Positions 40,938 to 44,966 of a stretch of 64,000 bases of DNA are shown piece after piece. The DNA is taken from the NCBI RefSeq assembly GCF_055900595.2, contig NZ_CM148325.1; one strand, 5' to 3'. The notes beneath the pieces were generated by a model. The model ran no database searches and was not told the origin of the DNA. It saw only the letters and a list, made by a program, of their open reading frames with translations. Within the stretch, counting starts at the first letter, position 1; the number at the start of each line of letters is the position of its first letter. The position numbers and the translations under genes were made by a program.

Positions 40938-41519
40938 ATGAAAAAAAGAGACCTTAAAAAACACCTCCGTAGTCAGATTGAATATTTTGAAGATAAGGCT
41001 GCAAAAACAGGGCTTTCCGGTAAAGAGAACATGAACTTCAGGGCACACCTCCTGACGTGGAGAATACTTAATATCACGAGAGATGGACTTGAGCCGCTAG
41101 CCTACCTGATGGAAGATGGCGAGACCCTCATACAGGATCCCAATGTGGAAATGGAGAAGAAAGAGATGGACCTGCCGATAATCGGGCTGTTTGAGATCCC
41201 TGAACTAATAGGACGTTATGAACACGAAAACCGCCAGCTTGCCGCCTTTTTATCCGTGACAATCGAACGACTGGAAACCGTGAAACACGATATTCCGTTC
41301 GGTTTTGATGAGCGCACCGAGGGTGATTTGCTCAGCTTTCAGATTGCCCTGAACGTGCTCACCGCAGAGCCTTCTGCGTGGCTACGCCCGGAACGGCACC
41401 ACAACACGTTCGCATTTACCGTAATTCCCTACGATGCCGCACAGGAAGAGGATAACTTCGAGACCAGGCTTGTTCCCCTGTATCAGATTGCGGATTTCTA
41501 TACGTTGATTCGCTGGTAA
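40938..41519 (+). CDS. hypothetical 193-aa acidic protein (prophage cargo)
   Basis: ORF followed by a strong intrinsic terminator; no recognisable family. Confidence 0.55.
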   Translation: MKKRDLKKHLRSQIEYFEDKAAKTGLSGKENMNFRAHLLTWRILNITRDGLEPLAYLMEDGETLIQDPNVEMEKKEMDLPIIGLFEIPELIGRYEHENRQLAAFLSVTIERLETVKHDIPFGFDERTEGDLLSFQIALNVLTAEPSAWLRPERHHNTFAFTVIPYDAAQEEDNFETRLVPLYQIADFYTLIRW

Positions 41520-41534
41520 TCCCCCACAGTAAAA

Positions 41535-41557
41535 CAGCCCGACCGGGCTGTTTTTTT
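41535..41557 (+). terminator. rho-independent terminator
   Basis: cagcccgaccgggctg hairpin followed by T7. Confidence 0.6.
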
Positions 41558-41614
41558 ATCTGATATTTTTGATAACGTTGACCGGCTCATTAGCAAAAAA
41601 GCAAAGAGGAAAAC

Positions 41615-42001
41615 ATGAAAGCCCGTATCGGGATCATCCCGGAAAAAGCCCTGCGCCAGCACCTGATTGATATTGCCAGAGGGAAGCGAAAACCACAGCC
41701 CGACGAGCCAAAGGTATGGTTTTCATCCATCAATGCGGCAGGCCAGACGCTGAGCAATGAAAATATCGCCCTTCTGCGTCTTATGAATGAGGAGAAGCCG
41801 CAGACCATGACCGCACTTGCGGAGTTATCCGGCAGAAAACTGAGCAACCTGTCTGTAACCCTGAAAATGCTGAGCAGCTACGGTTTTGTCAGTCTGGAAA
41901 AGAAAGGGAATACTGTACACCCGAAAGCACTTTTTACCGATTTTGAAATCATCGTTGATCCGTCCGTGGGTTCAGTACATCGCGCCACCGCCCGGCCCTG
42001 A
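41615..42001 (+). CDS. standalone winged-helix DNA-binding protein (128 aa)
   Basis: C-terminal half TMTALAELSGRKLSNLSVTLKMLSSYGFVSLEKKG has wHTH character; RBS agaggaaaacATG; flanked by terminators on both sides. Confidence 0.5.
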   Translation: MKARIGIIPEKALRQHLIDIARGKRKPQPDEPKVWFSSINAAGQTLSNENIALLRLMNEEKPQTMTALAELSGRKLSNLSVTLKMLSSYGFVSLEKKGNTVHPKALFTDFEIIVDPSVGSVHRATARP

Positions 42002-42012
42002 AGTGCGCAATA

Positions 42013-42040
42013 AACAGCCCCGTTCGGGGCTGTTATTTAT
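42013..42040. terminator. bidirectional terminator between convergent genes
   Basis: cagccccgttcggggctg hairpin with T-rich flank. Confidence 0.55.
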
Positions 42041-42411
42041 TCCAGAATCAGCTGTTCAGGTGTGCAGCCGTACAGTCTGGCAAGGCGCTCAATATTTGCC
42101 CTGCGCGGGCGTTCTGTTCTTTCGAATTCGGACACGGTAGCCTGCCTGATACCCAGCGCATCCGCCACCTGCTTTTGCGTCATTCCGCGATAGATTCGCC
42201 ACGCCGCCTGCATGGTGCAGCCACGTTCCGAGAGGATGTTGACCACCTCGTTGGGATACAGCGTATCAGGCGATGCACTCGGTTCGTTCTGGACGTCCTC
42301 GTAGAGTTCGTCAAGGTCGCTGTCTCCTGCCAGTTTTTCAAACAACGCCACTGGCAGAATGACGGATACCCTGTTACCCGCACCGTCAGTAATAAACTGA
42401 ATCTGACTCAT
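42037..42411 (-). CDS. XRE-family HTH antitoxin (HigA-like)
   Basis: C-terminal MTQKQVADALGIRQATVSEFERTERPRRANIERLARLYGCTPEQL is a Cro/C1-type HTH; adjacent to RelE/ParE toxin gene. Confidence 0.7.
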   Translation of the reverse strand: MSQIQFITDGAGNRVSVILPVALFEKLAGDSDLDELYEDVQNEPSASPDTLYPNEVVNILSERGCTMQAAWRIYRGMTQKQVADALGIRQATVSEFERTERPRRANIERLARLYGCTPEQLILE

Positions 42412-42484
42412 TTGCCCCTCCTGCTAAACATCGGTTTATTTTTTAATTTGCTGCCGGTGATAAAAAACGGCGGGTCGCCCCGCC

Positions 42485-42757
42485 TTAGTATGTTGTCGAG
42501 GTTCTCCGCTGAATACGGAGGATCCTGATAACCACTATCTGCCCTCCCTCAATCGTGAACCTGACACGGTAATGATTTACCCTGAGTCTGTACTCCCCGC
42601 CCGAGTCAGTGAGCTTTTTAATATCCAGATTCTGGAACTTCGGATAGCCATAAAGCGCGTTAACTTTCTCGCGTAAGGATTTCTGATCCCTCGCTGGCAA
42701 AACCCGTAAATCTTTGATTGCCCGAGGGGTCCACATGATTTCAGTCGTCATAAACAC
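42485..42757 (-). CDS. RelE/ParE-family type II toxin
   Basis: ~90 aa with the ...EYRLRVNHYRVRFTIEGGQIVVIRILRIQRR core typical of RelE/ParE toxins. Confidence 0.7.
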   Translation of the reverse strand: MFMTTEIMWTPRAIKDLRVLPARDQKSLREKVNALYGYPKFQNLDIKKLTDSGGEYRLRVNHYRVRFTIEGGQIVVIRILRIQRRTSTTY

Positions 42758-43340
42758 ACCGGAAGCAAATTATTAAAGAGCCGTGCCCGCTGGCACACCT
42801 TAAATATAGGTTTTAACCCCTATATTGTCAAACAAAATCCCTATATCATGAAGTAAAAAAGCACCTCCCGCGACCTCCCTTTCCGGTGCACGAAAGTGCA
42901 CAAATTTGCACAATTTTTTTGAACGACTTTTTGCCCTTCCGGCCCGTGTGGCGTCTGGATCCGTCGGGGATCCGTGCGTGCACGAAAAAAGGCCTTTTTC
43001 TGCGCGCAGGTGACGGGGGAACAGCCCGCGTTTCAGGGGGTAAATAGCATTCCCTGAACGATGTTGCAGTGACACAACAGAATGGCTGTATTTCTCACGC
43101 TGAGCGTGAAAAAGACGTAAGGGCTTTTGATTTGATGGGGTGAAAGATAAGGCCGTCAAAATCGCACTGAGGCAGCGAGAATATGTCGTCAGAGTTGCGG
43201 GGTTGCGTAAGCATCCGCCCGGCGATGATGGCTACAGGGCTGGAGATGTTGTGAAATTATCTGAAGGAATAACCAGCTTGCAGGAGAACCCGGGCAAAGT
43301 CAGAATAGCGGCAGGCATCAACTCAAAAGAGGATAATGTC

Positions 43341-43844
43341 ATGAGCCACTTTAATGATTTATGCCAGATCAATCGTGAAGCTGAAGAAAAACGCGCTGAG
43401 GCAGCTCAAATTTTGCGGGATGAAGCGGCAAGGCTGATTGATTTCTATGAAGAATGGCTGGGGCTTCCATCCATGTACTGGGAAGACGATGATGGCGACC
43501 TGCACCGCTACGTGGAGACAGGCTTGCCATGTAAGACAGCGGCGGATTTTAGTCCTCTTTCAGTCCACAATATCGCATCTGCACCAGACAATATTTTCCG
43601 CATGGCCGTACGAACCTGGGTTAAGTCATCTGACAGCAGCTACCCGGTAAGCGTGGTTATTGCACTTGAATTATATTCAGTAGATGCGGAACGGGTGTCT
43701 CTGAGAGTCCGGGTGGAAGACGATATTTCTGTTCGCGTATTTATCAATAAACCCAGCGAAGAAGCCTGGGGCGATGTTGTTATGCACATGAAAAAGCACA
43801 TCGCTAATCACCTGAAAAAGCGAGCGCCATCAGCACTTCGTTAA
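43341..43844 (+). CDS. hypothetical 167-aa protein (prophage cargo); alternative GTG start at 43140
   Basis: ATG at 43341 with aaagagga RBS; followed by bidirectional terminator before Q. Confidence 0.5.
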   Translation: MSHFNDLCQINREAEEKRAEAAQILRDEAARLIDFYEEWLGLPSMYWEDDDGDLHRYVETGLPCKTAADFSPLSVHNIASAPDNIFRMAVRTWVKSSDSSYPVSVVIALELYSVDAERVSLRVRVEDDISVRVFINKPSEEAWGDVVMHMKKHIANHLKKRAPSALR

Positions 43845-43859
43845 GCAGAGCTGGAGAGT

Positions 43860-43884
43860 CGGGGCATAAATTTTTTATGCCCCG
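43860..43884. terminator. bidirectional terminator between the cargo gene and Q
   Basis: cggggcat-aaatttttt-atgccccg hairpin. Confidence 0.5.
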
Positions 43885-43910
43885 GCGAAGCAGCAGACAA
43901 GCGAAGCGCG

Positions 43911-44966
43911 TCAGGATATGGGCCGGGTGTCTAACAGTGCGTAAGGGTTAAAACGGATCACCTCTTCGCCCAGCCAGTCGTTGACGTGTTTCATTGCTTC
44001 CATGACGGGCATCAGTTCGTTAATGGCAAACACACGGGCTGCCTTCTCCACATCCCCGAATGACCCCTTCTCACCCGGCATGGCCCCCATCAGCTGAGGT
44101 GGCACGCGGTGCACAGCCAGCACGTCATCACGCGATGCGGCCTTGACGTTCATGAACTCATCCTTTGCGGTGATTTGCTGAAACGGCAAAATCTGTACGC
44201 CATCCTTACCACCTCCCGCCGCGTGGATGAGCAGATTTTTAAACGCCCCGCCACCACGCGCGCTTTGCAGTGTTTCCCGCAGTTTTTCCATGCTTTCACG
44301 GTCAACCTGCGCCGCACCGATGTAGACAATACAGCCCGCGTGTGAGCCGTTATCGTAGTAGAGCTTGCGGAAGATATCGGCGGAATGTGACAGGCTGGCA
44401 GACAGCAGGCCGCCCAGGTAATCCGGCATCCCGTAAATCTCCTGGTTGATATCAGGATTCATCAGGTGGCATATCGTCCCCTCACGAAAGCGGTACTCTT
44501 CCTGTCCTTCCTGTATATACCACCATGATTTCATATCGCTGCCACGTCGCATGTATTTCGCCAGCGCCCGGCGCAGGGCCAGCGGTTCGCCAAGCATGTT
44601 GCGCCGCAGCTCAAGACAGGCATTACCGAACACAAACCAGTCCATCGCCACCCCGGCGAACTCCTGGCGGGACAGCAGAGGATGTGGAATATAGCAGCCC
44701 AGCAGCACATTACGTTTGAAGCTGAGCGCCGACTGGTGCCAGGACGTCTGGCGGGCAGCCCGTGCCAGTCCGTACCAGTCAACGGGCGTTTCAAACCACC
44801 GCCCGTTGTCGGCGCAGTACATGCTGTCCAGCAGGTCGGCCCCTGACAGCCGGTAAGGTCCTTCAAACGTGAAGGCACTCAGTGTCGGGTCGCTTCGCAG
44901 GGAATCCGCAAGGCTGCCCTGCGCTGCGCGGGCGTTCGTACGTCGTTGTTTATTTTTTCTGCTCAT
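43911..44966 (-). CDS. Q: portal protein (P2 gpQ-like)
   Basis: 351 aa; position downstream of terminase P in the leftward P-Q operon. Confidence 0.85.
   Translation of the reverse strand: MSRKNKQRRTNARAAQGSLADSLRSDPTLSAFTFEGPYRLSGADLLDSMYCADNGRWFETPVDWYGLARAARQTSWHQSALSFKRNVLLGCYIPHPLLSRQEFAGVAMDWFVFGNACLELRRNMLGEPLALRRALAKYMRRGSDMKSWWYIQEGQEEYRFREGTICHLMNPDINQEIYGMPDYLGGLLSASLSHSADIFRKLYYDNGSHAGCIVYIGAAQVDRESMEKLRETLQSARGGGAFKNLLIHAAGGGKDGVQILPFQQITAKDEFMNVKAASRDDVLAVHRVPPQLMGAMPGEKGSFGDVEKAARVFAINELMPVMEAMKHVNDWLGEEVIRFNPYALLDTRPIS

Follow-up and report, generated by a model that had tools for sequence, protein, structure and literature searches.

A type II toxin-antitoxin module in which the toxin gene comes first lies in a P2-like prophage within a 64,000-nucleotide stretch of contig NZ_CM148325.1 (assembly GCF_055900595.2). 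The whole 64-kb stretch is hereafter called the window, its numbering is used throughout, and every toxin-antitoxin feature is encoded on the minus strand (Table 1). The toxin gene ends at TAA 42487-42485, a 73-nt spacer follows (42484-42412), and the antitoxin open reading frame (ORF) occupies 42411-42037, its ATG lying 5 nt from a strong ribosome-binding site (RBS), AGGAGG at 42422-42417. A first-pass annotation, made from the letters alone, had reported the antitoxin gene and its spacer, a GC hairpin (ggcggg-gcga-cccgcc) with a T6 tail in the spacer and the strong RBS beyond it, and all of these are present as described. That annotation overlooked, however, that the spacer past the hairpin is complementary to the RBS region of the toxin gene, which alters what termination at the hairpin would imply for expression. 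The complementarity between the toxin 5' untranslated region (5'UTR) and the post-hairpin spacer is what is new here; an internal terminator in a toxin-first module was already known.

Table 1. Features of the toxin-antitoxin module and its surroundings (window numbering)
Feature	Position	Strand	Basis
RelE-type toxin gene, 88 aa, stop included	42485..42751	-	Pfam, PHROG, catalytic residues, predicted fold
Antitoxin gene, 124 aa	42037..42411	-	HTH_3, PHROG, N-terminal RelB-like match
Fold-back 5' arm UAAUUUGCUUCCGGUG, includes weak toxin RBS (GGUG)	42757..42772	-	Duplex, folds
Fold-back 3' arm CACCGGCAGCAAAUUA	42444..42459	-	Duplex, minimum free energy and centroid folds
GC hairpin GGCGGG-GCGA-CCCGCC	42469..42484	-	Terminator scan; conservation
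T6 run, making the hairpin a canonical intrinsic terminator in the window lineage	42462..42467	-	Sequence
Antitoxin RBS AGGAGG, strong	42417..42422	-	Sequence
-35 hexamer TTGACA	42826..42831	-	Promoter scan; conserved in promoter alignment
-10 hexamer TATATT	42803..42808	-	Promoter scan; conserved in promoter alignment
Palindromic operator (predicted) AATATAGG-N8-CCTATATT	42803..42826	-	Uniqueness, helix co-variation
Upstream operator half-site (predicted) ATATAGGG	42839..42846	-	Sequence; one or two such copies in relatives
Predicted stem-loop GUGCC-AGCG-GGCAC at mRNA 5' end	42783..42796	-	Sequence scan, fold
GC hairpin between antitoxin gene and convergent gene 41615-42001	42013..42034	both	Terminator scan (+ strand)

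The spacer hairpin begins at the base after the toxin stop codon, its arms GGCGGG (42484-42479) and CCCGCC (42474-42469) forming six G-C pairs around a GCGA loop (-12.6 kcal/mol), and it is followed by G and then T6 (42467-42462). It was among 8 terminator-like sites found by a terminator scan of the 2-kb region, for which shuffled sequences gave 2.3 +/- 1.6, and a chance origin was rejected. With six U residues in the next 8 nt, it has the canonical anatomy of an intrinsic terminator. Relatives of the module were gathered from one-genome-per-species contigs, from contigs encoding single homologues and from phage and plasmid records, and the hairpin was surveyed in 23 related loci with spacers (38-176 nt in the Enterobacterales clade). 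GGCGGG-loop-CCCGCC is kept in 14 of the 23 at -12.6 kcal/mol or lower, mostly with GNRA loops and sometimes with one or two added stem pairs. The stem starts 3-7 nt past the stop codon in 11 of these 14 loci; it follows the stop directly (0 nt) in the window, and two loci have gaps of 9 and 18 nt. Different GC hairpins occupy the same place in three more loci (Ewingella, CGGUGAG/CUCGCCG; Alysiella, GGCAGGGC/GCCCUGCC; phage PPyecE, CUGGCGG/CCGCCAG). The bases between stop and stem differ among loci, and the hairpin lies at widely varying distances from the antitoxin start. Because the hairpin is fixed to the toxin stop while the rest of the spacer varies, we assign it to the 3' end of the toxin gene and conclude that it is under selection. 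The T-run, however, is mostly not kept: a canonical T-rich tail was found only in the window (6 T in 8), L033 (6) and L028 (5), the other loci having 0-4 T. Thus, the earlier description of the hairpin as terminator-like extends to relatives for the stem but seldom for the tail; termination may be confined to a small number of lineages, with provision of a stable 3' end as the possible conserved role of the hairpin. Three distant relatives (a gammaproteobacterial metagenome-assembled genome, Geobacter and Azonexus) have a 4-nt overlap of toxin stop and antitoxin start, with neither spacer nor hairpin, a division that mirrors the HicA^O B and HicA^T B subfamilies.

Attenuation downstream of the toxin gene reduces antitoxin mRNA, not toxin mRNA. 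In work by Lin et al. (NAR 2025, PMC11878559), a GC hairpin with only UUU between hicA and hicB was shown experimentally to cut hicB mRNA ~10-fold, such that the internal terminator of the toxin-first HicA^T B module raises the toxin:antitoxin mRNA ratio ~10-fold. Thus, an internal terminator in a toxin-first module is a known device for which short U-runs can suffice, and the first-pass view of such an arrangement as unusual was overstated. Moreover, Li et al. (PMC4824070) showed that when a terminator lies within a few bases of a stop codon, the ribosome terminating there represses it almost completely. As the stem lies 0-7 nt past the stop in most loci, termination at the hairpin should depend on translation of the toxin.

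Just past the hairpin, the box CACCGGCAGCAAAUUA (42459-42444) is complementary at 15 of 16 positions to UAAUUUGCUUCCGGUG (42772-42757), which lies within a 5'UTR motif, GCTCTTTAAnAATTTG, conserved across lineages. The predicted duplex is worth -25.3 kcal/mol, a value reached by 0 of 500 shuffles. The complementarity recurs with different sequences in about 12 lineages: 5'UTR ACAGAGGA faces post-hairpin tail UCCUCUGU in L028, CACAGGGG faces CCCCUGUG in L029, AGAAGGA faces UCCUUCU in L027, UUUGAG faces CUCAAA in L023 and L024, and GCUGUCAAGA faces CUUUUGACAGC in L003. On a Leclercia plasmid encoding an antitoxin of 48% identity, CAUGGAGAGGCA and UGCCUCUCCAUG form a perfect 12-bp pair. For 10 lineages, duplex energies were computed by pairing the terminal 38 nt of the 5'UTR with the first 42 nt past the hairpin, with 500 shuffles of each tail. 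Cognate duplexes ranged from -15.6 to -34.2 kcal/mol and shuffled tails averaged about -10; the cognate value was reached by no shuffle in 8 lineages, by 1 in L027 and by 7 in L023. When every 5'UTR was paired with every tail in a 10 x 10 matrix, the cognate tail was the best partner for 6 of the 10, and the cognate sum (-241.6, versus -150.7 +/- 16.8 for permuted pairings) was reached in 0 of 200,000 permutations. Because the cognate sum beats all permutations, we conclude from these energies that the two arms co-evolve. Complementarity was absent from loci without a strong hairpin (L004, L005, L008 and L030).

Whole transcripts, from the predicted start to the antitoxin start, were also folded. 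Long-range pairs numbering 18-26 formed in 10 of 11 lineages, with a similar ensemble expectation, and in the 407-nt transcript of the window the helix is present in both the minimum-free-energy (MFE) and centroid structures (z = -3.0; 0 of 100 shuffles folded as well). The cost of opening each RBS was computed over positions -18 to +12. In the window, opening the toxin site costs 17.0 kcal/mol on the read-through RNA and 9.2 kcal/mol on RNA ending at the hairpin, and opening the antitoxin site on the read-through RNA costs 8.3 kcal/mol. In 10 of 11 lineages, opening the toxin site took 3-13 kcal/mol more in the long form than in the short one.

The toxin is RelE-like. The mechanical ORF begins at GTG 42757, the start given in the first-pass annotation; its stop codon and spacer were borne out, but ATG 42751 (88 aa) is the most likely start, as it agrees with homologues (MTT.../MTQ...) and with most RefSeq annotation. 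RefSeq starts disagree even among E. coli genomes identical here, two of which are annotated from the internal ATG 42736 (83 aa). The protein matches Pfam ParE_toxin (4.4e-9), a family (PF05016) that spans both RelE and ParE, and PHROG 1213 "RelE-like toxin" (1e-14), and its nearest solved sequence is RelE3 of Methanocaldococcus jannaschii (3.7e-4). RefSeq names it a RelE family toxin, despite a score against NCBIfam TIGR02385 RelE_StbE of 22.7 bits, below the curated cut-off of 27.9. When 20 family members were aligned with E. coli RelE, residues K52, K54, R61, R81 and Y87 of the latter fell opposite toxin residues R55, R57, R62, R82 and Y88, of which R62 and Y88 are invariant in the 21 sequences and R55, R57 and R82 at least 90% conserved. 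An AlphaFold model of a toxin-linker-antitoxin fusion, built from 20 paired sequences, had a mean predicted local distance difference test score of 76.6 (81-95 over the toxin part). The best Foldseek matches in PDB were RelE3, Thermus thermophilus RelE, Mycobacterium tuberculosis RelE1 and RelE2, and aRelE (E 3e-4 to 8e-3), ahead of YoeB, HigB (0.004-0.08) and ParE (0.04-0.17). We conclude, from aligned catalytic residues and a modeled fold, that the toxin has the catalytic set and the predicted fold of RelE. A ParE-type gyrase poison, which would be without the RNase residues, was ruled out by that catalytic set and the weaker ParE structure matches, and membership in the HigB family was rejected, as there was no HigB-type Pfam or NCBIfam match and HigB structures rank behind RelE. 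No PADLOC model matched the toxin. A word-indexed protein search with the toxin returned only 3 near-identical hits, and relatives were found instead through the antitoxin and through a full HMMER search, which gave 288 representatives at E up to 1e-3.

The antitoxin carries a C-terminal helix-turn-helix (HTH) domain (HTH_3, residues 72-121, 8.6e-11), joined by an acidic linker to an N-terminal segment (residues 1-30) that has a weak RelB-like match at residues 5-28 and was modeled with moderate confidence in the AlphaFold fusion. That the antitoxin would bind and neutralize the toxin has indirect support from the co-inheritance of the two genes and from this modeled segment, although the fusion model carries no information on the interface. 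The antitoxin matches PHROG 7241 over its full length (1.3e-29), and 43 homologues at cluster level occur across Enterobacterales with 51-79% identity. Only generic HTH matches were returned by PADLOC and by comparison of the antitoxin sequence with solved structures, HigA2 and other two-domain antitoxins being absent from the latter. The module resembles HigBA of Proteus vulgaris, Streptococcus pneumoniae and M. tuberculosis in its toxin-first order, its RelE-superfamily toxin and an Xre-type HTH antitoxin that would repress its own promoter. It differs in that the toxin falls in no HigB family, with HigB structures matching less well than RelE, and in the extra N-terminal segment of the antitoxin. 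RelBE of E. coli and of M. jannaschii (RelBE3, PDB 3bpq) includes the toxins closest by sequence and predicted fold, keeps the same catalytic residues and has an antitoxin, RelB, that the antitoxin N terminus of the window weakly resembles, but its gene order is the reverse, its antitoxin has a ribbon-helix-helix rather than an HTH, and the toxin studied here scores below the RelE_StbE cut-off.

The two genes are, judged by their synteny, clearly a conserved cognate pair. A homologous toxin lies directly upstream of the antitoxin in 10 of 19 species loci (tblastn), and, with a single exception, every locus retrieved by way of one antitoxin homologue has the toxin-then-antitoxin order. The pairing of a RelE/ParE superfamily toxin with an Xre-type antitoxin, as first annotated, is upheld by the domain matches of the two proteins and by synteny among relatives. 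The exception, in an N15-like telomere phage of Xenorhabdus bovienii (L026 1300-2560), runs from operator promoter to antitoxin, spacer and toxin. Its 228-nt, AT-rich spacer holds a strong terminator (CCCGC-TTCG-TGCGGG-T5), and the cassette lies between two ~55-nt copies of the telK 3' end that are roughly 85% identical by eye, an arrangement that suggests a circularly permuted module inserted by recombination.

Of 5,426 complete E. coli genomes, 9 carry a near-identical copy of the module, and the regulatory regions of three E. coli copies compared base by base are without differences. The portal gene (43911-44966) and the replication gene of a P2/P88-like prophage bracket the module, and the interval between them is the cos-proximal hotspot of anti-phage systems (Rousset et al., PMC9122126). 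Relatives occupy the same prophage position in Klebsiella, Serratia and metagenomic P2-like prophages, and others are found on plasmids of Citrobacter, Leclercia, Pantoea, Rahnella and others and at unrelated chromosomal sites. In an isolated phage, Klebsiella phage 3LV2017 (NC_047817; L036 552-1275), the toxin (87 aa) and antitoxin (124 aa) ORFs are intact and are accompanied by the operator, the hairpin and the complementary box, but the RefSeq record annotates neither gene.

Upstream of the toxin gene is a promoter, TTGACA-17-TATATT (42831-42803), that matches the consensus at 11 of 12 positions, was absent from the first-pass annotation and is predicted to start transcription near 42796. 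The palindrome AATATAGG-N8-CCTATATT fills the promoter spacer and overlaps the -10 hexamer. Its core, the inverted repeat ATATAGG-N8-CCTATAT (42804-42825) of the earlier account, has no other match in the window even at one mismatch and arose in 0 of 100 shuffles, and an origin by chance was rejected. The third half-site of that account (42839-42846) is likewise present, reading ATATAGGG on the coding strand; that sequence occurs in the window only at 42825-42818 and 42846-42839. The latter copy repeats the left palindrome arm in direct orientation and lies 21 nt upstream of that arm. Fifteen aligned promoter regions share TTGACA, the palindrome ATATAGGG-N6-CCCTATAT and a -10 of TATATT or TATAAT, with one or two additional ATATAGGG copies upstream in relatives. 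A palindrome precedes the first gene in 22 of 22 loci, and its half-site varies with the predicted recognition helix of the antitoxin. Half-site ATATAGGG (TAGGG type) goes with G-I-x-Q-[AS]-T-V-S-E-F-E, ATA(T)AAGG (Rahnella, Ewingella) with ..[AS]AVSQFE, ATATAGA (Pantoea) with ..ASVSAME, TATATAGT with ..SGVAKME, TATAAG (Alysiella) with ..AALSQIE, and GTTAGC-N3/4-GCTAAC of distant relatives with ..[AP]YL[CS]QIE. Because half-site and recognition helix co-vary, there is good indirect evidence that the antitoxin binds ATATAGGG-type sites of the predicted operator and represses the promoter. The earlier reading of the repeats as an autoregulatory operator thus gains support from their overlap with the promoter and from this co-variation.

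A search of the toxin ORF and spacer of the window for a further promoter, down to 8 of 12 matches, found none, and across loci there was no internal antitoxin promoter site at a conserved position. Without an internal promoter the terminator must be leaky, and antitoxin expression in the window appears to need read-through. Two relatives, Morganella L023 and Pectobacterium polonicum L024, have spacers of 169-174 nt with a promoter-like site 31-34 nt before the antitoxin start (L024, TTGATA-17-CATTAT, 9 of 12 matches; L023, ATTGCA-16-TATCAT, 8 of 12), and some family members may have gained an antitoxin promoter of their own. The 5' end of the mRNA is predicted to form a stem-loop (GUGCC/GGCAC), and most relatives examined also have a short hairpin there, of other sequence (for example UCCCA/UGGGA, CCGA/UCGG), followed by the conserved 5'UTR motif. 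It is probably a stabilizing stem-loop; RNAalifold gave no consensus for this 5'UTR hairpin, the loops of which do not align. A 119-aa ORF with a TTG start (42800-43159) overlaps the toxin-antitoxin promoter and was regarded as spurious.

We propose that one sigma-70 promoter drives the toxin gene and then the antitoxin gene, and that the HTH antitoxin, alone or with the toxin, represses it at sites overlapping the -35 to -10 interval. The mRNA would start with the short stem-loop (42796-42783), and the toxin, a putative ribosome-dependent mRNA nuclease of the RelE type, would be translated from its weak RBS. The hairpin and U6 would end part of the E. coli transcripts, leaving a short form of ~335 nt that carries the toxin gene only and has a comparatively open RBS region. 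Transcripts that read through would gain the 16-nt box, which would pair with the toxin 5'UTR and RBS and close a ~300-nt loop around the toxin gene, and the strongly translated antitoxin gene would stay available. The long mRNA would then yield mainly antitoxin, from its strong AGGAGG, the short mRNA could yield toxin, and the ratio would be set by the efficiency of termination. In lineages without a U-run, the ratio would instead be set by a cut in the AU-rich spacer followed by trimming as far as the hairpin, which could produce the short form much as truncated hok mRNA is produced from the full-length form. Since the stem directly adjoins the stop codon, ribosomes completing the toxin gene should hold back termination, such that translation would favor read-through as a negative feedback, and loss of translation or new transcription would favor the toxin-competent RNA.

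Several points weigh against this proposal. The U-run is missing in most relatives, and termination therefore cannot be the conserved role of the hairpin. Hairpin-bearing loci L011, L032, L037 and L038 show no significant complementarity, and hairpin-bearing L023 lacks the long-range helix in the global fold. RNAalifold applied to the 5'UTR, hairpin and tail recovered the GC hairpin only, as indels misalign the arms; the duplex energies per lineage, the matrix of cognate and non-cognate pairs and the permutation test were used in its place. The duplex is more stable in the sense orientation in 4 lineages, about equal in 5 and more stable in the antisense orientation in the window, and the arms may be an inverted repeat at the DNA level, though both would still be transcribed on any read-through RNA. 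The toxin RBS of the short form remains partly paired in the MFE structure (8 of 11 positions in the window), and in the window the outermost, G-U-rich helix of the MFE structure also contacts the antitoxin RBS. The reversed order in Xenorhabdus indicates that co-transcription is not obligatory in the family. Finally, everything here is computed: that transcripts end at the hairpin, that the RNA pairs in vivo and that expression is in any way affected are predictions. Built nonetheless on the observed identity and conservation of the genes, the co-variation of the operator, the conservation of the hairpin and a complementarity that itself co-varies, the proposal as a whole (an operator-controlled RelE/HTH module, long and short mRNAs set by the hairpin, and a fold-back silencing the toxin on the long form) is one that we moderately favor.

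Simpler accounts of the hairpin start from its terminator anatomy. The hairpin and T6 could be a partial terminator that only sets the toxin:antitoxin mRNA ratio, the complementarity being without function; the canonical features in the window fit plain attenuation of this sort, and the same mechanism is the one proven experimentally in HicA^T B. The complementarity, however, is far above chance, its arms co-evolve across lineages that share no arm sequence, and most relatives with hairpin and complementary box are without a U-run, such that we consider attenuation by itself unlikely. Were the pairing nonetheless non-functional, the locus would reduce to an ordinary RelE/HTH pair whose terminator is like that of HicA^T B. 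The same relatives point in another direction, in which the hairpin is not a terminator but protects a 3' end: cleavage in the AU-rich spacer and 3'-to-5' trimming would remove the inhibitory box and thereby activate toxin translation, as in hok, and T6 would be incidental. Conservation of the hairpin without a U-run in most lineages, its tie to the toxin stop rather than the antitoxin start, a fold-back in lineages without a U-run and the precedent of hok are all consistent with such protection. But the G and T6 tail of the window satisfies terminator criteria, short U-runs are enough in HicA^T B, and a processing site is not identifiable from sequence, and we regard protection as the sole function as decidedly improbable.

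Termination might, at the other extreme, be complete, with the antitoxin transcribed from a promoter of its own in the spacer or the 3' end of the toxin gene. Xenorhabdus, with its order of operator promoter, antitoxin, strong terminator and toxin, and the candidate promoters in the long spacers of L023 and L024 are compatible with two transcription units, and internal antitoxin promoters are reported for other type II systems (PMC11878559). The window is hard to reconcile with that layout: none of the sites in its toxin ORF or spacer has as many as 8 of 12 promoter matches, the stretch from the T-run to the antitoxin start is just 50 nt long and is filled by the complementary box and RBS, and a fold-back makes sense only on read-through RNA. 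Two transcription units therefore seem very improbable here.

A stronger version of the proposed fold-back would be a switch like that of hok, in which pairing locks the toxin on the full-length mRNA, allowing antitoxin only, RNAs ending at the hairpin, whether through termination or through 3' trimming, make toxin, and a block of host transcription or translation, for example by an infecting phage, shifts output from antitoxin to toxin. We hold this stronger version tentatively, as possible but rather doubtful; if it is true, the module would be an infection-triggered suicide device in the P2 defense hotspot.

Two known systems each share part of this design. HicA^T B of IncI2 plasmids is likewise a type II, toxin-first module on mobile elements with an intergenic GC-rich hairpin and short U-run, and its sister subfamily HicA^O B has overlapping genes and is without the hairpin (Lin et al.). 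Its toxin, however, is HicA rather than RelE-type, and its hairpin lies just upstream of the antitoxin RBS and lowers antitoxin translation, whereas the hairpin of the window is tied to the toxin stop and followed by a box complementary to the toxin RBS region; the section and discussion of Lin et al. report no such pairing. Termination was shown experimentally in HicA^T B and is predicted for the window. In hok/sok, long-range pairing of 5' and 3' segments (tac/fbi; PMC9841398) closes the toxin message and hides its RBS, and the full-length mRNA converts to a truncated form; in the window, too, a 3'-shortened form would be translatable. Unlike the module studied here, hok is a type I system with a membrane peptide toxin and an antisense RNA antitoxin, whereas the window has a protein antitoxin, the gene for which follows the toxin gene on one long RNA, and the short form arises in hok by slow 3' processing, whereas here it may arise by termination. 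An antisense RNA antitoxin was also sought in the window, but the opposite strand had no promoter-like site across the spacer or the 5'UTR, and an Rfam scan of 41500-43900 gave no match at E up to 1. Within the literature searched, no type II example of such a fold-back was found.

How cells escape poisoning by toxin-first modules is poorly understood, as both transcription and translation reach the antitoxin after the toxin. The internal terminator of HicA^T B is the one answer with experimental backing. The locus described here suggests a second layer of control, in which a long transcript would serve the antitoxin only and a short transcript would be competent for the toxin, a logic for which type I systems such as hok are as yet the sole known examples. 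The family that carries it occupies the cos-proximal anti-phage hotspot of P2-like phages.

Other elements surround the module. Just upstream of the toxin-antitoxin promoter, (T)GTGCA(C) recurs three times in direct orientation, at exact 10-bp intervals, at 42887-42911 on the minus strand (TTGTGCAAAT TTGTGCACTT TCGTGCACCG). The 64 bp around them (42887-42950) are the sole part of the region conserved in P88/P2-like phage genomes, where the counterpart is at or near the genome ends and hence adjoins cos. Similar repeats flank the module in L002, L003, L021, L024, L027 and L033, and a packaging protein or another phage protein may bind them as an array. The interval from the cos-proximal region to the portal gene contains a 234-aa ORF (43140-43844, plus strand) that matches PHROG 5091 (function unknown, 3.5e-52) and no NCBIfam or PADLOC model; it is a further cargo gene of the hotspot.

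On the other side, the hairpin between the antitoxin gene and its convergent neighbor reads CAGCCCC-GAAC-GGGGCUG followed by UUUAUUG on the minus strand and likely terminates both strands. The neighbor (41615-42001, plus strand) encodes an HVO_A0114-family DNA-binding protein. In 5 of the 8 best-matching E. coli copies, and also in L001, a DUF6516 ("TumE family toxin") gene stands ahead of this regulator gene. The window and three other genomes have, in place of the DUF6516 gene, an unrelated 193-aa ORF (40938-41519, plus strand) without a family match, and thus the HVO_A0114 regulator is without its usual partner in the window. A terminator at 41531-41554 follows the 193-aa ORF.

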